Source: a virus (Duplodnaviria; Heunggongvirae; Uroviricota; Caudoviricetes). Taken from it: DNA of 64,000 nt. The stretch spans positions 205,741 through 269,740 of the IMG/VR virus record IMGVR_UViG_3300017565_000001; one strand, given 5' to 3'. Position numbers and translations under genes: made by a program. Shown here piece after piece: positions 6,093-61,926 of this stretch. A model generated the notes under the pieces. That model did not search any database, was not told where the DNA came from, and worked only from the letters and a program-made list of their open reading frames with translations. Each line of letters starts with the position of its first letter. The stretch's first letter is position 1.

Positions 6093-6509
6093 ATGTTTAA
6101 TTTTATTCGTAGATGGCTTGACAAATTAGCGGAAGCTAAAGAAACCTATCGCAAATACAAGGCCGCAGAAACTCTAGTTGCCCATTATCGCAAGTTCTGT
6201 GAGGACAACCAGACAACATGCACCATGACGAGTCGATCAGGAGATGTTGGCTATTTTTCATGGATTACGGGTCCGTTTAGAATTGAACAACGAGTGTTTG
6301 AGGGTGCGGGTTTTACCGTTATCGAGGTTTTCCACCAGAACCTCGGGAACAAAATTCTTGATTACACGTACTATGATCGTAAATCACCTTTAACGGATAA
6401 ATGGTGTGTGAACGGTGGTTTTGATCAAAATAGCATAACTATGATGATTTTATCTGGTGAAGAATACGAAATGGGAGGTTACGAGAAATGGCTTTATTCC
6501 ATCGATTGA
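6093..6509 (+). CDS. hypothetical protein (tandem family)
   Basis: ORF in tightly packed run. Confidence 0.7.
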   Translation: MFNFIRRWLDKLAEAKETYRKYKAAETLVAHYRKFCEDNQTTCTMTSRSGDVGYFSWITGPFRIEQRVFEGAGFTVIEVFHQNLGNKILDYTYYDRKSPLTDKWCVNGGFDQNSITMMILSGEEYEMGGYEKWLYSID

Positions 6510-6802
6510 CTGAATGGTTGGATTTTTATCGGACCATCAAAGTCTTAAAGCAGATGACCCTAGAACAGAAGTCTTCTGCTGGCATCCTGAACCTCAAAGA
6601 ATACACGGAATATCAGTGGCTTAAAGGTAGTATCCGGTTCGTCGTCAAAGAATATAAAGATGGTACTACCTACTACCACGTCGCCACCAGCAAGAAGTCG
6701 CTACTGTTTGAGGCCACCGATCGTGGATGGTTGCGCGGCACTTCGGGCCGAATGGAAGCTGGAATGTGCCCCGATGTTCTCATCATGAAGATGTTGAGCT
6801 AA
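6488..6802 (+). CDS. hypothetical protein (tandem family)
   Basis: GGAGG RBS. Confidence 0.7.
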   Translation: MALFHRLTEWLDFYRTIKVLKQMTLEQKSSAGILNLKEYTEYQWLKGSIRFVVKEYKDGTTYYHVATSKKSLLFEATDRGWLRGTSGRMEAGMCPDVLIMKMLS

Positions 6803-7158
6803 TGAAATTCTGGCATCGTATTCATATCTGGTTTAAACATGGTTCCGTGCAGAACTACGAGCGGTGGCGAATAGCCAACTATCTGCATAAGTTTTGTCAA
6901 GAACGTAGACGAAATCCTGAACAATACGATGGCGGGTACCATACTCGAGCGTACTCTGATACTACCATTCGTAGGTGGCGCAAAGGCTATTACGAGATCG
7001 TTGATTATGATTTTGATTCATTTGACAGTTACGAACTGCATTTGCATGGTGACAAGATTTTCGATGTGATTCGTGGAGCTCATGGGTTCCACCATTTCGA
7101 AGGTGACCCCACCATGACCCTTGAAGACATTCTCATGGGTATGCTGTCAAGTGACTGA
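6802..7158 (+). CDS. hypothetical protein (tandem family)
   Basis: TAATG coupling. Confidence 0.7.
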   Translation: MKFWHRIHIWFKHGSVQNYERWRIANYLHKFCQERRRNPEQYDGGYHTRAYSDTTIRRWRKGYYEIVDYDFDSFDSYELHLHGDKIFDVIRGAHGFHHFEGDPTMTLEDILMGMLSSD

Positions 7159-7360: not shown

Positions 7361-7412
7361 CTCATTGTTTGCCACAATACAGAATGGCACTTTTGAACTT
7401 TTGGGAAATATA

Positions 7413-8009
7413 ATGAAGAAGATTTTGCTGGCTGTTGTTATCACTGTAGCGGTGGTTATGGGATTATGGATGGGTTCCGCTAAGGCACAATCCGCCCCAC
7501 CTGAAGTTGCGACACTTCTCGACCAATTGAGTCCGGAAGTCAAGAAGCAAATTGCGTCAGCCCTGACCAAAGATGTGGCCACTCAAGAAAAGGCCGCCAA
7601 GGCTGAAAAGGAATCCGTCAGCGGCCAAATGGCCGAATGGGGTCGAGCAATTGGTGTTGGCGTAGCAGAAGCCGCAAAAGGCGTAGGTGTTGCAGCCAGC
7701 GACTTTTTCAGCACTAGTGCCGGAACCTTCGTCGCTGTTCTGATCGCTGTAAAGGTTGTAGGGCCGTTCTTCGCCCACATCTTTGGTGGATTGTTTCTGG
7801 GTATTGTGGGTTTCATCATGATTCGCCACTTGGCTCGTCGTATGTGTAATGACTTGTACGAATATGACGAAACCTCCAAGAATGTGTTCGGCAACTATCC
7901 ACTGAAGCGCGTTAAGACTGACAATCTGTCTGAAGGCGGCGCTTTTGGTATTGGCGTCATGTCGGTGATCCTGATTGTTGCCGTGGGTCTGGTCTTCGGA
8001 ACAATCTAA
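7413..8009 (+). CDS. membrane protein with signal peptide
   Basis: MKKILLAVV signal, several hydrophobic helices. Confidence 0.8.
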   Translation: MKKILLAVVITVAVVMGLWMGSAKAQSAPPEVATLLDQLSPEVKKQIASALTKDVATQEKAAKAEKESVSGQMAEWGRAIGVGVAEAAKGVGVAASDFFSTSAGTFVAVLIAVKVVGPFFAHIFGGLFLGIVGFIMIRHLARRMCNDLYEYDETSKNVFGNYPLKRVKTDNLSEGGAFGIGVMSVILIVAVGLVFGTI

Positions 8010-8865: not shown

Positions 8866-8952
8866 GCTCCGGTGGCGAAATTGGTAGACGCACTGGATTT
8901 AGGTTCCAGCGGTAGAAATACTGTGTCGGTTCGACTCCGACCCGGAGCACCA
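8866..8952 (+). tRNA. tRNA-Leu(TAG), long variable arm
   Basis: canonical class II cloverleaf, CCA. Confidence 0.95.
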
Positions 8953-8980
8953 CAAAGTTTTGAATTTTTCACAAAAGTTG

Positions 8981-9049
8981 TTGACTAACTGAAATGGTTG
9001 TCCTACAATTGATGTCCGTTAAGAAACTAACGGAAACGCTCTTTAAAAA
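8981..9049 (+). promoter_or_regulatory. rrn-like promoter + hairpin + boxA
   Basis: TTGACT-17-TACAAT, TCCGTT/AACGGA hairpin, CGCTCTTTAAAAA. Confidence 0.75.
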
Positions 9050-9376
9050 TTAGTTTTGGTGTATAGTACCTGGGCTGCAAGCACTGTCGGATGTGCAAGC
9101 TAGGTGATCCTAGATCATCGAACCTCTCAGCGAAACTAAGGTTTGGATAGAAAGCCAAACACTCTAGATCATGGATTAACACCGTGATGTGGTCAATCCG
9201 CCTTAAAGAGATTGACCTCAAGCTTCACTATTGAGGCCTAGCCACAGTAGCAGGAGAACAGTGAGATGATAACGTGGGGTAACGCCCTAATGGTCATCTC
9301 AGGGGTAACCAATGGTTCCTAGTGAACCGCCTGAGACCTTGAAAGCAGGTTGGAGGCACCAAAACTAATTTTTAAA
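9042..9376 (+). ncRNA. ~300-nt unidentified structured ncRNA within 21-bp terminal stem
   Basis: TTTAAAAATTAGTTTTGGTGT pairs with GCACCAAAACTAATTTTTAAA; many internal hairpins, no credible ORF. Confidence 0.7.
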
Positions 9377-9393
9377 ATGTTTGAAAAAAGTTG

Positions 9394-9464
9394 TTGACTG
9401 TATGGCAAAACAGGTTTACAATACTGTTCTGTTGTGTAGCAAAGCAACAACCGTTCTTTAAAAA
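9394..9464 (+). promoter_or_regulatory. second rrn-like promoter + boxA
   Basis: TTGACT-17-TACAAT, CGTTCTTTAAAAA. Confidence 0.75.
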
Positions 9465-9490
9465 CTGATTCAAAAGAGTCCTTATACTAA

Positions 9491-9578
9491 GCGCACTAAG
9501 GCGTAGGCCACGCTAAGTGAGGTCACAGCCGCACTCCTAATAAGAGTGGGGTTGCAGGTTCGAATCCTGTGGTGTGCC
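9491..9578 (+). ncRNA. tRNA-Ile(AAT)-like RNA with expanded D region, no CCA
   Basis: CACTC-CTAATAA-GAGTG arm, GCAGG-TTCGAAT-CCTGT T-arm, inside long stem 9476-9593. Confidence 0.6.
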
Positions 9579-9595
9579 TTAGTATAGGGATTCAA

Positions 9596-9697
9596 GAGTC
9601 CTTATTATTTGACTCATAGCACTAGACCCGTGATGAAGACGCTTGAAACAAGTGGTCCAGATCGGAAGTCGGGAAAGTGAGTCAAATAATAAGGATT
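9596..9697 (+). ncRNA. small ncRNA in long terminal stem
   Basis: AGTCCTTATTATTTGACTCA / TGAGTCAAATAATAAGGATT. Confidence 0.55.
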
Positions 9698-9699
9698 AT

Positions 9700-10594
9700 G
9701 GGACGTCTAAGTTCCAGTTGGTGGCTTCGGTCGCTGACAAAAAGGATAAGTGAGGTAACTCACCCAACGCGGGTAATCCTACATAACCGCGCCATGCTTG
9801 CATGGTCCATTTAGACAAGCCTGCTCACTACCGAAAGGTAGCCATCACTTCCCAACGGGTGGTGGTAATTGTGAAGCAAGTGAAGTGGAAAGAATTGTCG
9901 TTTACACGCCTGTTTTGACTTCGGTCATTACGGGGAACGTGAGCAACAAGAGAGTAACAGGTGGTGCTGACCTCACTTCAAAACCAACTTGCCAACTTGT
10001 ATGAGAAAGGGTAGCTAATTGTTCCGAGGTGTTGCAACCAAGGGGTAGTTAGCAGTTCTAATGGTTGACGGGCATATGCACGTTAATCGTGAAGAACGAC
10101 TGAGTAGTCCGCAAGACGAAAGGTACATGGTGTGTTGTATTTCGTGGCTCAAAAGGTCATGAAGCAACTGAGGCAGCACATCATAGTAGGTTGCAATATA
10201 GCTCATTTGGTAGAGCAATTCCATGTTAAGGAATCGGCGGTGGGTTCAAACCCCACTATTGATAAAAATGCAAAGTCTGCCTCGGTATGTTGTGAAAGTC
10301 ATCTAATGCTCAGAGCTTCGGCTAACTGAGTCCAGGAAAGCTCGCAAGGCCTACTTGGTTTATGTTTAGATTTTCGTAAGTGGTTAGCGCTGCTGAATGG
10401 CCCGCAAGGTCAGCGTAATGAAGAACGTAGAATAGCAACATGCGACAAGCCTACTGCCTGGCTTTAAAAACGGCGATGACGCTAGTGGACAGTATGAGAC
10501 GAAAGTCCGTATTGTGGATGTCGAGAGAAAGTTGCCCGCAAGGTGACCAATAATGCTCGAGGCACTAGTAGGAACCATGTAATCTCAGTGGTCC
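9700..10594 (+). ncRNA. probable GOLLD RNA
   Basis: ~900 nt non-coding, dense GNRA/UUCG hairpins (GCAA, GAAA, TTCG), GGTGGTGCTG and terminal GTAATCTCAG motifs recalled from GOLLD, in a tRNA cluster, followed by hairpin 10602-10620. Confidence 0.7.
10192..10263 (+). tRNA. tRNA-Asn(GTT)-like module embedded in the large ncRNA
   Basis: TAGCTCATTTGGTAGAGC D-arm, TTCC-ATGTTAA-GGAA, GTGGG-TTCAAAC-CCCAC; short acceptor, no CCA. Confidence 0.65.
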
Positions 10595-10696: not shown

Positions 10697-10870
10697 ATGA
10701 AAATCGTACCCAATGACGACGAGAAGGGCCTGGAATGCGAACATTGCGGTAATCACACCGTGTACATGTACCGCTTCACGGGTTGCATGGGTTGCGGGGC
10801 ACCGATCTGCTGCTCGTTCTGTTGCTCAGAAACCACCAAAGCTATGTTCCCCAAGGACGAAGACGAATGA
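10697..10870 (+). CDS. 57-aa Cys-rich (zinc-binding) protein
   Basis: AGGAG RBS; CEHC..CMGC..CCSFCC; not in ORF track. Confidence 0.7.
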   Translation: MKIVPNDDEKGLECEHCGNHTVYMYRFTGCMGCGAPICCSFCCSETTKAMFPKDEDE

Positions 10871-32365: not shown

Positions 32366-33781
32366 ATGTCCACTTTCGCTCAAGCAGTTGCCGCTCAAAC
32401 CACGACCACCACCAACGGTGCCAAGGCTTACACCTCCACCCTGAGTGCGGCGGTTGATCTGTTCTTCAAGATCGGCGCCAGCCGTGGCAAGAACATCATC
32501 TCGGATTTCACCGCCGCTTATGTGGAGAATCCGGATGTCGCTCTGCGTATCGCGCAATGGGCTCGTGACGTGCGTGGTGGCTCGGGAGAACGCCAAATCT
32601 TCCGTGACATCCTGCAACACCTGGAGAACTCGGCTCCGGCCGACGCCCAGCGTCTGATCAACAACATTCCGGAGATCGGACGCTGGGATGACCTCCTGGT
32701 CCTGACCAACCCCCTGCTGAAGCAACATGCTTTCGGCCTGATCAAGGTTGCGCTGGAAGCCGGCAACGGCCTCTGCGCAAAGTGGATGCCGCGCAAGGGT
32801 AAGGTCGCCGAAGAACTTCGCGCGTTCCTGGGCTATTCGCCCAAGCGTTACCGCAAGACTCTGGTGACGCTGACCCAAGTGGTCGAAACGCAGATGTGCG
32901 CCCAGCAATGGGATGAAATCGAATTCGGTAAGGTGCCCTCGGTCGCCGCTGCTCGTTACAAGAAGGCGTTCAACCGTAACGCGCCGGAAACTTTCGCCGC
33001 TTACGCGGACGCGCTGAGCAAGGGTGAAGCCAAGGTCAACGCTGGTGCGGTGTTCCCGTACGATGTGCTGAAGGGCGCATTCTCGCAGTATGGCCGTAAC
33101 TCCATGCCTCTGCCGGAACGTCAACACGCTATCGCCCAGTGGGCCGCTCTGGAAAACTTCGTGGGCGATGCATCGGTTCTGCCGATGGTCGACGTGTCGG
33201 GTTCCATGTACTGCCCGGCCGGTGGTCACAACTCCAAGTCGAACGTGACTTGTATGCAGGTCGCCGTTTCGCTTGGTCTGTATCTGGCGGAAAAGAACAC
33301 GGGCGCGTTCAAGGACACGTTCCTGACGTTTACCGATCAGCCCAAGCTGTACAACCTGAAGGGTGACGTCTTCCAGAAGATGGATCAGATGACCGGTAAG
33401 GTTGGCTACAGCACCAACATCCAAGCCGCTTTCCGTGAAGTTCTGCGTGTGGCGGTGGAAGGTAAGGTTGCTCAAGCTGACATGCCGGCAAACATCGTGA
33501 TCCTGAGCGATATGCAGTTCGACCAGGTGTCGCGTGACGACGCTACGGCGTTCGACATGATTCGCGAAGAGTACAAGGCCGCCGGCTACGACGCTCCGCG
33601 TATTGTGTTCTGGAACCTGAACGCGCATGGCAACGTTCCGACCCGCTTCAACCAGTCGGGTGTTGCACTGGTTTCGGGCTTCTCGCCCGCGATCGCGAAG
33701 ACCGTTCTGAAGGCCGAGAACTTCGACCCGATGAACATCATGCTGCAAGCTGTGATGGTTGACCGCTACACGCTGGCGTAA
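32366..33781 (+). CDS. DUF2828 family TROVE/Ro60-like RNA-binding protein with vWA domain
   Basis: TNG..ST..VDLFF..GASRG, RDVRGG.GER, GRWDDL, AKWMPR, YRK, VPS.A, vWA MIDAS DVSGSM, ILSDMQFD, FWNL, VSGFSP; strongly biased codons. Confidence 0.85.
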   Translation: MSTFAQAVAAQTTTTTNGAKAYTSTLSAAVDLFFKIGASRGKNIISDFTAAYVENPDVALRIAQWARDVRGGSGERQIFRDILQHLENSAPADAQRLINNIPEIGRWDDLLVLTNPLLKQHAFGLIKVALEAGNGLCAKWMPRKGKVAEELRAFLGYSPKRYRKTLVTLTQVVETQMCAQQWDEIEFGKVPSVAAARYKKAFNRNAPETFAAYADALSKGEAKVNAGAVFPYDVLKGAFSQYGRNSMPLPERQHAIAQWAALENFVGDASVLPMVDVSGSMYCPAGGHNSKSNVTCMQVAVSLGLYLAEKNTGAFKDTFLTFTDQPKLYNLKGDVFQKMDQMTGKVGYSTNIQAAFREVLRVAVEGKVAQADMPANIVILSDMQFDQVSRDDATAFDMIREEYKAAGYDAPRIVFWNLNAHGNVPTRFNQSGVALVSGFSPAIAKTVLKAENFDPMNIMLQAVMVDRYTLA

Positions 33782-58194: not shown

Positions 58195-59685
58195 TTACTT
58201 GATCAGCGTGTACCAGGTGAAGCCATCACGCATGACAGGCTTGACCTTACCTGCGCGAATAGCCGCATCCACTGCCGCAAAGTTGGCACTATTTCCACCA
58301 ATCAATGATGCCATTTGGCTCTTGGAAAGCAGGACTTCGCTAGGAAGCGTAGTGTCAGCAACCGCTTCCTTCACAACAGGCTTGGTGACTTTCGACGCAG
58401 TACCAGTGGGGAAAGGCCATGTTGTGTCCACGGGGTTGGTGGCAGGAATATGCGGTGCCGTGGGAGCCCTATAGGCCGGATTGCGCGACTCACTCATAAT
58501 CTGACCGTCCGAGCAACGAACAATCCTTGAAGAGTAAATGTGGCTGGGAACACCGGCCTTGATTTCGTTCTTCAGATCGTCAAAGTCATAATCCATACCA
58601 GCGTATTCATAATCAGCATCGGCTGAAGTACGTTGCTCCAAAGTGTATTGCGCATCCACTACCGTGGGACGATTTTCCTCCCACGTAAGGTTTTCAGCTT
58701 CGTACACGGTAGCACCGGTCTCGGAATTGATAACACAAACCGAGAACACGTTGTCCTCTTCCAGAAGATCTTCTGCCATTTCAAGAGCCGAATCCTTGTC
58801 CAGATAATCTGATTCTAGACGGTATTCAGCATCGGGCGAATTGCGATAACAAACCTTGAAGTCATCTTCATCACAAGTGTGATCTCCAAATGCATCAAAG
58901 CCCTCTTCGTCATCAAATTCAGGATCGTCGGGATCCTGGGTATTGTAAACGACGCGGTTCTTACCCAGATCTAGATCGTCAACTGGTACTTCACCAATGA
59001 CTTCGTACTTGCAAGTACGCCCCTTGGCATTGTTGTAGTCAGTCGGAATGGCTACCACATCGGCGGGGTTGATCTTCACCAACACAACACGAACATGTTC
59101 GGGATCAGACGAGCCATAATAGGGCAGGTACGACATGGAGCAGAAGTGTAGGCCGGCCGAACAAGTGCGGGACTTTTCTTCGTCAACCAGATTACGGCGC
59201 ATCGTAACTACCTGTCCGATTGCATTGCTAATCTTTCCAGTGTAGATGTCCGTGTAATCAGCGTTTACCTTCTTGTATGCCACAAAGTGACCATCATCTG
59301 TGATTGGCAGATCACACGCTTCCAGGAAGCCATACAGTTCATCAACTGCTCGCTTGCTGGGGTTCAGCATCAAGTTATCCAGGAACGCAACCATGGGCTT
59401 GATGTCGAAGCCTTCAGCTTGCATCTCCAGAATGCGTTGAGTCAGAGTGTTGTGTACTGCGAAGTCATCGTAATAGACAACACCATCCGCGACACGGATG
59501 AGGCCTTGAGAAAAGCTCACGATCGCGCGGCTGATATTGATGAGTTCTTCAACCAGATCAAAATCACCAACCTTCAGTGCTTCACGAATTTCGTGATACT
59601 TTTGGTGGGAATCTTCCGTGATTGTGTATGTCTTGCCCTTCAACATCACATTGATGGACGTGGGAGTTAGTCGATATGGAATCAT
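58195..59685 (-). CDS. rIIB: RIIB-like protein
   Basis: NPS.RAV.ELYGFL...ITDDG.F.AYK.V..CS.GLH.C..P.DVV.IP.DY...K.R.C.Y. Confidence 0.92.
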   Translation of the reverse strand: MIPYRLTPTSINVMLKGKTYTITEDSHQKYHEIREALKVGDFDLVEELINISRAIVSFSQGLIRVADGVVYYDDFAVHNTLTQRILEMQAEGFDIKPMVAFLDNLMLNPSKRAVDELYGFLEACDLPITDDGHFVAYKKVNADYTDIYTGKISNAIGQVVTMRRNLVDEEKSRTCSAGLHFCSMSYLPYYGSSDPEHVRVVLVKINPADVVAIPTDYNNAKGRTCKYEVIGEVPVDDLDLGKNRVVYNTQDPDDPEFDDEEGFDAFGDHTCDEDDFKVCYRNSPDAEYRLESDYLDKDSALEMAEDLLEEDNVFSVCVINSETGATVYEAENLTWEENRPTVVDAQYTLEQRTSADADYEYAGMDYDFDDLKNEIKAGVPSHIYSSRIVRCSDGQIMSESRNPAYRAPTAPHIPATNPVDTTWPFPTGTASKVTKPVVKEAVADTTLPSEVLLSKSQMASLIGGNSANFAAVDAAIRAGKVKPVMRDGFTWYTLIK

Positions 59686-59733
59686 GTTTGATCCTGTTAT
59701 TGTTTATTGTTGTTCTGGTGCTTTGTTGCCATT

Positions 59734-61926
59734 TTACAACGAACTGTCATCACTCTGCAATGCTTGTTCATCAACACTCTTAACATAGTTGATGACCGTC
59801 ATACGATCTTTCTGATCATACGAATATTTCGTCAAGAGCTTCAACATGGGATAATTGTCAGTGATGGCATTCCACTCACTCACAAAGTCGATTTCAACCA
59901 AAGTCTGCGAATCTTCTTTGAAATTAAGGAGTTTGGCCAGTTGATGCAATTCGACCTGGGTAGCTGTCTGAATTTGATTTGCTTCTTCGATCCGTTCACG
60001 GAACTTGCGAATTGGGTGGTCTTCAGACAACTCATTTACTGCCACAGCAGCCCATGAAGAGTAATGTGACTCGGACGAATGGCGCCAGGCTTGATATGCT
60101 TGACGACGTACAACCGCGCCTGCCACATCAACCTTACTGAGCTTCTTCTTCAAACGATCTTTGATATCGTCGTAAAAATTAATCCACTTGTCACTTTCGT
60201 CAAATTCTTTGGTCTTGGAACGCAATACGCCAAGCACCACTTCATTATCGGCATATAGACCAGTTGACCTCGCCATAGTCAACACATCAGCAAATCGTTG
60301 ATCCTTACGATCGCCATCGCACGGGTAATTACGCAGAATTGGCAAGTAAACGCCACCATCTTCAAAATCCAAATCGTCCGGTTCGAGGTCAGAACTGCCG
60401 TAATGTGGATTCAAGAATTCCTGATAAATCGTGCGCTTGCCACCGCTGGACGGAGTGCTACGCGATGGCAATGGATCAAGCGTTGACGTGTTGGTAGTTT
60501 GCGGGTCACCAAGCGCATTCAACAGTTTCTTGACATCAGCATCAGAACCCTTGATGGTGTATCCTGATGCCAGCGTTCCGCTCTTCTTGATGTGTTGTTT
60601 GACTCGAGTGGCGCCACCGCGCTTCAAGTCATCAATGAAGATTCCCACCGTGCCACTGGGGCTAACAGCATAGGTTTCTTTGACGTTAGCAGTGGCAAAG
60701 GTTGCCCGACGATTCGCACGGTAACTAGTCGACAGTGTTACTTCGACTGATGGATAGTTAGCCATGGACAATTTAATGACATTGTCGTATGGCAAAAACC
60801 GTTTGTTCTTCCACATGAACGGATTGTCATTTGTGATGACAGAACTCAATACTGAAACCTGGCTGAGGATTGCGCTAAACTTGCAACGAGCTTCCCATTC
60901 AGTCGTGCAAGCATCAATCACGTCCTTGAACTTCAGGGGGAGTTCAGCCGCAACAACCTTCAGAGCATTCTTGATATTCTGAATTGTGGGGCCCTTGTAG
61001 CTGAGGGTTTCGCGCGAAGCGGTTACGTCCAGATCACCGATGGGAAATTGGATAACCAAGTGCGAACGCAGCAGGTTCCAATAAAGTTGACCTTCAGTGG
61101 TGCTATGATCCAAATCCAGAGCGTATGCATCAATGGGGTAGGCAACCTTGCCTTGAATGGCCATGGCACCGTGCGAACCATACGGTGATGCGGTGTTTAG
61201 CACCCAGTTGGAGCCTGAGACCTTGGGGTTCAGAGTAGCCACTTGCCAGTTGTGGGCACCAGTGACAACAGGTTGCGGGTCAAACCATTGCAGGACCAGC
61301 TTGGCCTTCTCAGCAAACACGTGATAATCGTTCTTCTTGACGGGCATGGACACTTCAAGGCCATTGCCTTCATCCGTGGGTTCACGACCCAGCTCAACAA
61401 TTTCAGGTTCATCCTGTTCGTTGATGTAAGCGGTGAAGCTATACTTCATGCCATCTTTACGGCTGATTACCGTGAAGCTGTCCACATAGCTGAAAGGAGA
61501 CTTTGAGCCCAGACCCAATGCACCGATGAAATCGTTGCTGGTGGTCTTGGTGGATTTGAAGAACGTATTGTAGATACCACCAACAAAGACTCGTTCTTCC
61601 TTACCATCCTCATTCGTGACCGTCTTCCAGTAACCACACATTTCTTCTGGAGTGAGGCCAATACCGTAATCACGGATGGTCAGCCAGGGTTCCAGAGCTG
61701 TGGGGAGATGTACAGAGAAGGGCTTGTCAGGGCATCCCGCGGCGATGTGAGCATCGTACGCATTGCAGGACAATTCACGCAGAATTGCCTTGGGCTTATC
61801 GGGATACAGGGAGTCACTGAGGACGCGAAAGGCTTTGCCGTTTGCTTCAATGGTGAACTTGCTTTCGTTCAACCCGCCACTTCTTTCGATGGCGTTTACT
61901 TTACCTTCAATGATCATGCTGGGCAC
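59734..61926 (-). CDS. rIIA: RIIA-like protein (GHKL ATPase N-terminus)
   Basis: LY..K..A.LRELSCNAYDAH, IRDYGIGL, STK, G.LGLGSKSPF.Y; adjacent to rIIB. Confidence 0.92.
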   Translation of the reverse strand: MPSMIIEGKVNAIERSGGLNESKFTIEANGKAFRVLSDSLYPDKPKAILRELSCNAYDAHIAAGCPDKPFSVHLPTALEPWLTIRDYGIGLTPEEMCGYWKTVTNEDGKEERVFVGGIYNTFFKSTKTTSNDFIGALGLGSKSPFSYVDSFTVISRKDGMKYSFTAYINEQDEPEIVELGREPTDEGNGLEVSMPVKKNDYHVFAEKAKLVLQWFDPQPVVTGAHNWQVATLNPKVSGSNWVLNTASPYGSHGAMAIQGKVAYPIDAYALDLDHSTTEGQLYWNLLRSHLVIQFPIGDLDVTASRETLSYKGPTIQNIKNALKVVAAELPLKFKDVIDACTTEWEARCKFSAILSQVSVLSSVITNDNPFMWKNKRFLPYDNVIKLSMANYPSVEVTLSTSYRANRRATFATANVKETYAVSPSGTVGIFIDDLKRGGATRVKQHIKKSGTLASGYTIKGSDADVKKLLNALGDPQTTNTSTLDPLPSRSTPSSGGKRTIYQEFLNPHYGSSDLEPDDLDFEDGGVYLPILRNYPCDGDRKDQRFADVLTMARSTGLYADNEVVLGVLRSKTKEFDESDKWINFYDDIKDRLKKKLSKVDVAGAVVRRQAYQAWRHSSESHYSSWAAVAVNELSEDHPIRKFRERIEEANQIQTATQVELHQLAKLLNFKEDSQTLVEIDFVSEWNAITDNYPMLKLLTKYSYDQKDRMTVINYVKSVDEQALQSDDSSL

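Follow-up and report, generated by a model that had tools for sequence, protein, structure and literature searches.

Complex-folded non-coding RNAs of at least 300 nt are rare, and such large RNAs often proved to be ribozymes, ribonucleoprotein cores, or self-assembling cages (GOLLD, ROOL, OLE). The locus described here raises the question of whether a megaphage encodes a further RNA of this kind and, if so, how it would be produced and what it would be for. The stretch of DNA that was analyzed (hereafter, the window) comprises 64,000 nucleotides, which span positions 205741-269740 of a virus record of 424,529 bp; this record carries direct terminal repeats and is rated complete. Its first 20 kb constitute an RNA island with 25 tRNAs called by ARAGORN, and within this island, at 9042-9376 on the + strand, a preliminary description had placed a large structured RNA, for which we use the name RNA-X. 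As that description had noted, RNA-X adjoins GOLLD: an Rfam scan of the whole window identified a bona fide GOLLD (RF02032) at 10127-10591 with 199.9 bits, within whose linker a tRNA-Asn is located.

Genes similar to rIIA and rIIB are located at 58195-61926, and no cultured phage close to the megaphage was found, the top rIIA match having less than 34% identity over the full length. A 471-aa protein encoded at 32366-33781 contains DUF2828 and DUF7788 domains and was found to have no sequence relative in the PDB. The ORFs flanking RNA-X yielded nothing informative when 9 short ORFs were compared to Pfam and a subset of them also to PHROGs. Directly 3' of GOLLD, a 57-aa cysteine-rich ORF (10697-10870) is conserved with at least 90% identity in related contigs; it forms 1 cluster with 4 members and lacks a family match.

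The predicted fold of RNA-X is considerably more stable than expected for its composition, with a minimum free energy (MFE) of -124.1 kcal/mol compared to -88.2 +/- 5.0 kcal/mol for dinucleotide shuffles (z -7.1), none of 100 shuffles equaling it. The minus strand of the same region folds as well (z -6.0). On the + strand, a folded core of approximately 293 nt (9063-9355), which is delineated by the RNAalifold consensus, pair counts, and the covariance model, is enclosed by a closing helix, P1, and both together amount to a length of approximately 335 nt. The leader strand of P1 spans 9042-9062 and the trailer strand 9356-9376, the latter being supported by sequence reading, the MFE fold, and the consensus. 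The 21-bp closing helix that had been proposed previously can be read directly from the sequence, extending from U9042-A9376 to U9062-G9356, and 20 of its 21 bp are formed in the MFE fold.

In order to reach homologs, we made use of the neighboring gene at 7365-8009, the protein of which has counterparts with 72-77% identity on Logan metagenome contigs. This led to 3 syntenic loci (L004, L005, and L006), all of which contain RNA-X and have also retained the cassette that follows it (described below) as well as GOLLD. A fourth locus, L018, originates from the sample set of L006 and reached the same model score (370 bits); based on the equal score and the common samples, rather than on a direct alignment, it was counted as a duplicate of L006. 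The RNA-X family analyzed here therefore consists of 4 sequences that are approximately 90% identical and belong to a single megaphage lineage. Across L004, L005, and L006, identity over the RNA cassette amounts to 88.8-92.7% compared to 68-80% in the flanking coding DNA, which indicates a stronger constraint on the RNA than on the surrounding proteins.

Within the model-based alignment of these 4 sequences, all 352 cells of the 88-pair consensus form standard pairs; 20 of the 88 pairs are variable, yet pairing is never lost. Changes on both sides were observed for 8 pairs distributed over 4 helices (9077-9100, 9103-9119, 9192-9216, and 9314-9328). When partners were slid by 1-3 columns as a control, only 34-39% of cells remained paired, with 0-1 double changes, and the observed pairing values were matched by 0-2 of 500 shuffles. 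The rewritten hairpin 9192-9216 is common to L004 and L005, L006 harbors a rewritten hairpin 9103-9119 with a new loop, and changes in the other 2 covarying helices (9077-9100 and 9314-9328) are confined to L004. The changes thus trace to at least 3 lineages, so that they do not go back to a single inherited event. Furthermore, 36 cells (10%) are G-U pairs, and 12 variable pairs interconvert via G-U; since such cells would be A-C mismatches on the opposite strand, the + strand is the RNA strand. Taken together, substitutions on the + strand that are compensatory or mediated by G-U preserve the structure of RNA-X.

These data also bear on whether the region could act as DNA, for instance, as an origin, a packaging site, or inverted repeats for recombination, or could code for a small minus-strand protein. 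The 21-bp inverted repeats flanking the region and the stable fold of its minus strand would fit such a reading, as would a minus frame of approximately 60 codons that is open in all 4 sequences. However, the G-U cells and interconversions work only for an RNA transcribed from the + strand, and the promoter, the boxA-like element, and the leader hairpin described below are all oriented for + strand transcription. The reading frames point in the same direction. Two ORFs of at least 40 aa overlap 9042-9376, both on the minus strand (64 and 43 aa), and the sole sizeable one (9027-9221) is frameshifted in L006 by a 5-nt insertion, and its L004 counterpart contains a stop and differs at the N-terminus; that the frame stays open at all can mostly be ascribed to the fact that the RNA-X sequence barely changes. 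We therefore regard a DNA-level or minus-strand coding role as extremely improbable. Translation, which the preliminary description had named as an observation that would speak against an RNA, left no sign, and judged by its reading frames, RNA-X is non-coding.

The consensus structure (RNAalifold) allowed us to draw the architecture of RNA-X from the outside to the inside, with all elements on the + strand. P1 is followed by 2 long-range helices, P2 (9068-9072/9346-9350) and P3 (9125-9131/9329-9336), and hairpins 9077-9100 and 9103-9119 are located between them. Inside P3, a junction with 6 or 7 radiating hairpins is predicted, comprising hairpins 9139-9163, 9165-9191, 9192-9216, and 9223-9256 in its first part and 9262-9301 (with an apical portion at 9275-9289) and 9314-9328 in its second part. 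Among the 4 sequences, P1 to P3, their junctions, hairpin 9139-9163, and the tip 9275-9289 are sequence-invariant. As P1, P2, and P3 do not vary, their conservation attests to constraint on the sequence, and covariation provides no proof of their pairing.

Out of the internal helices that had been suggested from a single sequence, 2 are in agreement with the alignment: GGTCAATC/GATTGACC (helix 8) holds with 4 compensatory pairs, and TGAGATGAT/GTCATCTCA (helix 10) holds with 4 one-sided changes that keep the pairing. The third, ACCTGGGC/GCTAGGT, which corresponds to a register slide of +2, is disfavored, since only 26 of 28 cells pair and 2 breaking substitutions are accompanied by no compensating ones. 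In the alternative, ACCUG pairs over a long range with CAGGU (9346-9350), while GGUGAUC/GAUCAUC forms a local hairpin; this arrangement is paired in 100% of cells, shows covariation in the local hairpin, and was preferred because of the 2 uncompensated substitutions in ACCTGGGC/GCTAGGT.

Does this structure correspond to a known RNA? At Rfam 15 gathering scores, a scan of the whole window assigned no family to RNA-X, and nothing credible was obtained for it at E<=10 either, when 8950-10150 and, with the laxest filters, 9036-9382 (347 nt) were searched. The models for GOLLD (RF02032, which represents the conserved 3' domain and has a gathering score of 150 bits; searched on 9036-9382 down to E<=10) and ROOL (RF03087; at the gathering score or E<=10) did not match. 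The same holds at E<=10 for the RNase P models (bacterial A and B, archaeal, and type T), in which P4 and the conserved-region core are encoded, and for those of group I introns, 6S RNA, Y RNA, tRNA, and small self-cleaving RNAs, and neither ARAGORN nor Rfam identified a tmRNA in 9042-9376. These scans agree with the earlier reading that hallmarks of RNase P, tmRNA, and group I introns are missing, and the comparison to Rfam proposed at that time has thereby been carried out with no refuting match, even at E<=10. The only hit among the intron models, to group-II-D1D4-5, was rejected as chance level: its 13.3 bits (E 4.7) fall short of the gathering score, which is 34.5, and it extends into the next promoter.

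Individual resemblances to well-characterized RNAs deserve to be mentioned. RNA-X is similar to RNase P RNA (M1) in its size, its paired 5' and 3' ends, its multi-helix core, and its tRNA-rich context, yet it differs from M1 in matching no Rfam RNase P model; likewise, conserved-region motifs (P4 strands of the CR-I/CR-V type) were not recognized when the sequence was read by eye. With the Y RNA/YrlA-Ro60 (Rsr) system, RNA-X shares the long stem in which it ends and a context rich in tRNA-like RNAs, but it is approximately 3 times larger and matches no Y RNA model. A relation to Ro was rejected, as the model for the TROVE domain (PF05731) matched control genomes but nothing in the 424-kb genome. 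Mimicry of rRNA was rejected as well: RNA-X has an 11-nt identity with E. coli 16S rRNA, but 63 of 200 shuffles reached such a score, so that the similarity does not exceed chance.

RNA-X could also be catalytic, i.e., a new ribozyme that processes its own ends or acts on tRNA or tRNA-like precursors of the phage. Several of its traits are those of a typical large ribozyme, namely its size, a multi-helix junction with invariant nucleotides surrounded by stems that vary at the periphery, and its position within an island that contains more than 25 tRNA genes. However, similarity to Rfam ribozymes, including RNase P types, group I and II introns, and small self-cleavers, was not detected, and among the unpaired columns of RNA-X, the search for a pseudoknot or a conserved tertiary pairing returned a single weak 5-bp candidate and nothing convincing. 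A catalytic function is therefore considered very improbable.

The proposal that RNA-X represents a candidate for a new class of non-coding RNA is thus supported by the lack of an Rfam 15 family on the one hand and by structure-preserving covariation in homologs on the other. GOLLD and ROOL are large ornate RNAs of phages and prophages that are found next to tRNA islands and form RNA-only nanocages of unknown function (10.1101/2024.12.08.627333). Like these, RNA-X is phage-encoded, non-coding, highly structured, and located in a tRNA island, and it lies in the region of the transcription unit of a bona fide GOLLD. In contrast, it has a length of approximately 300 nt, whereas GOLLD and ROOL comprise roughly 600-800 nt or more; and it is confined to 1 megaphage lineage, whereas they occur in many phages. 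RNA-X is a real new family of structured non-coding RNA of the GOLLD/ROOL kind, of which 1 lineage is known.

The distribution of this family was determined with a covariance model of 311 positions (R1), which scored 357-381 bits in the 4 members of the lineage and gave no further hit among the sequences searched. Within the 424-kb genome, RNA-X is present as a single copy (blastn and R1), and blastn revealed no close DNA relative among INPHARED phages and E. coli genomes. Searches in IMG/VR for loci encoding single proteins, namely a 352-aa neighbor and rIIA, did not widen the set of RNA-X homologs: a profile of the 352-aa family obtained 3 weak N-terminal matches on short contigs without RNA-X, and for distant relatives of this protein with 39-42% identity (L010-L013), no RNA-X was found within 10 kb. 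The 57-aa protein encoded downstream of GOLLD, when used as a query, returned only contigs already known to contain RNA-X. Exact and degenerate motifs of the invariant blocks gave chance matches only in IMG/VR, JGI metagenomes, and GTDB genomes; these (L009, L024, and L025) were rejected by sequence reading, blastn, and the covariance model. A catalogue of structured RNAs from IMG/VR required at least 3 IMG/VR regions per candidate, and its candidates have an average length of 67 nt (PMC10690425); we infer that RNA-X would not have qualified for it.

When R1 was run over 6 whole phage records (Phosso, MD18, XacN1, LR756511.1, DSS3_MAL1, and XM05), no RNA-X was found, although 5 of the 6 gave blastn matches to the GOLLD region of this phage. 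The association of RNA-X with GOLLD therefore amounts to synteny within 1 lineage. As a separate observation, these blastn matches, with 68-78% identity over approximately 75-260 nt, probably represent unannotated GOLLD RNAs, as they fall in unannotated or tRNA-annotated stretches of 5 phage records (PV764938.1, MT270409.1, MN602268.1, PV416404.1, and AP018399.1), which belong to Sinorhizobium phage Phosso (469 kb), Phaeobacter phage MD18, DSS3_MAL1, Erythrobacter phage XM05, and Xanthomonas phage XacN1.

How would such an RNA be made? The strong promoter of its own that had been attributed to RNA-X is borne out by a sigma-70-type promoter on the + strand at 8981-9009 (TTGACT-17-TACAAT), which agrees with the consensus at 10 of 12 positions; its two hexamers do not change among the 4 homologs, unlike the 17-bp spacer. 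A transcript predicted to start at approximately 9016 would begin with a 5'-terminal leader hairpin (CCGUUA/UAACGG, 9016-9033, + strand), which was identified from the fold, occupies the position of boxB in rrn leaders, and, through a C-to-U change, becomes a 7-bp stem with a GAAA loop in the relatives. This hairpin is followed by a boxA-like element, GCTCTTTAAAA (9038-9048, + strand), which perfectly matches GYTCTTTAANA and is invariant in the 4 homologs. The P1 leader strand follows directly and, at its beginning, overlaps the 3' part of boxA. In the relatives, P1 consists of 16 bp, a 2x2 loop, and approximately 7 further bp in which boxA itself is paired, amounting to approximately 23 bp in total.

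This order of elements resembles that of rRNA operons. The P2 leader of E. coli rrnH comprises a TTGACT promoter, a structured leader, boxA, and, after a few bases, the leader strand to which the 16S trailer pairs; likewise, RNA-X displays a promoter with a TTGACT -35 element, a hairpin, a consensus boxA, and a leader strand pairing with a trailer. The 2 systems differ in that boxA and the leader strand are adjacent in E. coli but overlapping in RNA-X, and in that rrn leaders and trailers enclose rRNA, whereas the RNA-X core of approximately 293 nt is unrelated to rRNA; furthermore, boxC was not recognized. In rrn operons, boxA is both required and sufficient for the Nus-factor antitermination complex, which withstands Rho and is believed to retain the leader until the emerging trailer pairs with it (PMC10250234). 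A leader-trailer helix of more than 17 bp is critical for 16S rRNA, and RNase III cleaves inside this helix (PMC10250234). At the sequence level, RNA-X shows both a match to the boxA consensus and a leader-trailer helix exceeding this length (21 bp).

With respect to the boxA assignment, it should be noted that the consensus GYTCTTTAANA is gamma-proteobacterial (PMC5725501). Perfect matches to it occur 3 times in the 424-kb genome, all on the + strand and all within RNA islands, whereas the 9-nt boxA core is not enriched genome-wide (5 observed compared to approximately 3 expected), so that the case for boxA rests on its position and conservation. The third perfect match, GCTCTTTAACA, is located 24.7 kb upstream of the window start (G000:C1:181034) inside another tRNA island and contains the same core as boxA of E. 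coli rrn; tRNA-like elements and others of the CAGCAA type come after it. Several stable-RNA transcription units of the phage may thus rely on boxA.

The remaining perfect match belongs to a second rrn-style cassette (9387-9700), which contains a promoter (9394-9422) with the AAAGTTGTTGACT block, a hairpin, and the boxA GTTCTTTAAAA at 9453, the position at which the relatives carry GCTCTTTAAAA. The AAAGTTGTTGACT -35 block of the RNA-X promoter recurs here at 9387. The cassette comprises 2 units, each of which opens with GAGTCCTTAT and is closed by a long helix: a tRNA-like RNA at 9491-9578, the D region of which is expanded (31 bits with the Rfam tRNA model and a 4-base anticodon according to ARAGORN), and an element of approximately 100 nt bracketed by a 21-bp stem (9596-9698). 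The stretch 9387-9700 folds with a z of -8.1, and the closing helices of the 2 units comprise approximately 16-23 bp each; that every unit has a closing helix of its own fits serial excision from 1 transcript. Base-pairing of RNA-X with the tRNA-like and GOLLD transcripts downstream of it that would be conserved in all 4 genomes did not exceed chance, the longest run being 9 compared to 9-14 in column shuffles. In L005, a gene of the T5orf172/MUG113 type, a putative homing-endonuclease family, is found at 6464-6904 (approximately window 9485-9805), where it takes the place of the tRNA-like unit together with the first part of the GOLLD 5' region, while RNA-X and the 3' domain of GOLLD are kept.

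The proximity of the 2 cassettes suggests another possibility, namely that RNA-X is a cis-acting 5' leader module of 1 long stable-RNA operon transcript that is discarded after processing. It could serve as a platform for folding or processing, or as an upstream promoter unit comparable to rrn P1/P2, and thereby boost or time the production of the tRNA-like RNA and GOLLD. In line with this, no intrinsic terminator was found between 9376 and the next promoter, which follows 18 nt 3' of RNA-X, the same -35 block is used by both promoters, and RNA-X is syntenic with GOLLD in 4 of 4 genomes. However, a discarded spacer would need neither approximately 290 nt with invariant junctions nor 8 kept hairpins, the second cassette owns a complete promoter and boxA, and the 5 other phages with matches to the GOLLD region lack such a module. 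We consider such a role as a leader unlikely.

Instead, we favor, with a probability of approximately 0.6, that RNA-X is a stable, structured non-coding RNA that is encoded by a gene of the phage, acts in trans, and is made in an rrn-like manner. By analogy to rRNA operons, we infer antitermination by boxA and Nus factors followed by RNase III-type excision of the stable RNA. According to this model, the sigma-70 RNA polymerase of the host would initiate at approximately 9016, and the nascent leader with its 5' hairpin and boxA would recruit host Nus factors into a complex similar to the rrn transcription antitermination complex (rrnTAC). This complex would shield the untranslated transcript from Rho and keep the leader strand next to the RNA exit channel until the trailer, emerging 293 nt later, pairs with it to form the 21-bp leader-trailer helix, with the folded core looped out. 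Cleavage of P1 by the RNase III of the host or a similar double-strand nuclease would then free RNA-X from a read-through transcript that would run on into the second cassette and thus include the tRNA-like RNA, the small stem-bracketed RNA, and GOLLD. The excision is assigned to the host enzyme because no RNase III gene was found in the phage genome. The overlap of boxA with the leader strand counts against such an rrn-like biogenesis. The mature RNA would probably serve as a scaffold for a partner, either protein or RNA, and contribute to the infection-stage biology in which the tRNA island and GOLLD take part; this is the weakest step of the explanation.

An invariant core combined with a covarying periphery and with expression of the rrn type speaks for a stable RNA that is abundant and the core of which is recognized sequence-specifically. 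RNA-X could also be a decoy, i.e., a sponge by which a host factor is titrated during infection, for instance, a defense nuclease, an RNA-binding regulator, the RNA polymerase, or a ribosomal component. The strong promoter and the rrn-type signals would imply high abundance, the invariant stems in 2 hairpins suggest sequence-specific recognition, and the island is rich in unusual tRNA-like RNAs. Mimicry of a known host RNA was, however, not found: its likeness to E. coli 16S rRNA does not exceed that of shuffled sequences, blastn gave no match in E. coli genomes, models for 6S RNA, Y RNA, and tRNA did not match, and a TROVE/Ro gene is lacking in the genome. Titration of a host factor is thus quite improbable.

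Beyond the favored reading as a stable trans-acting RNA, it is conceivable, albeit unlikely and speculative, that RNA-X founds a new class of large RNAs that assembles into an RNA-only particle, either by itself or together with GOLLD, or that acts as a ribozyme on tRNA or tRNA-like transcripts of the phage, which in either case would have adopted the way in which bacteria transcribe, fold, and process rRNA for stable RNAs of its own. The significance of these findings is bounded by the narrow distribution of RNA-X, of which 4 sequences from 1 lineage are available. Within these bounds, the presence of RNA-X in an operon-like block with GOLLD provides a second handle on the role of the RNAs encoded in phage tRNA islands. 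Furthermore, the cassette suggests that a megaphage reuses the boxA/Nus antitermination of its host, together with the logic of the leader-trailer helix, for the production of long untranslated RNAs.
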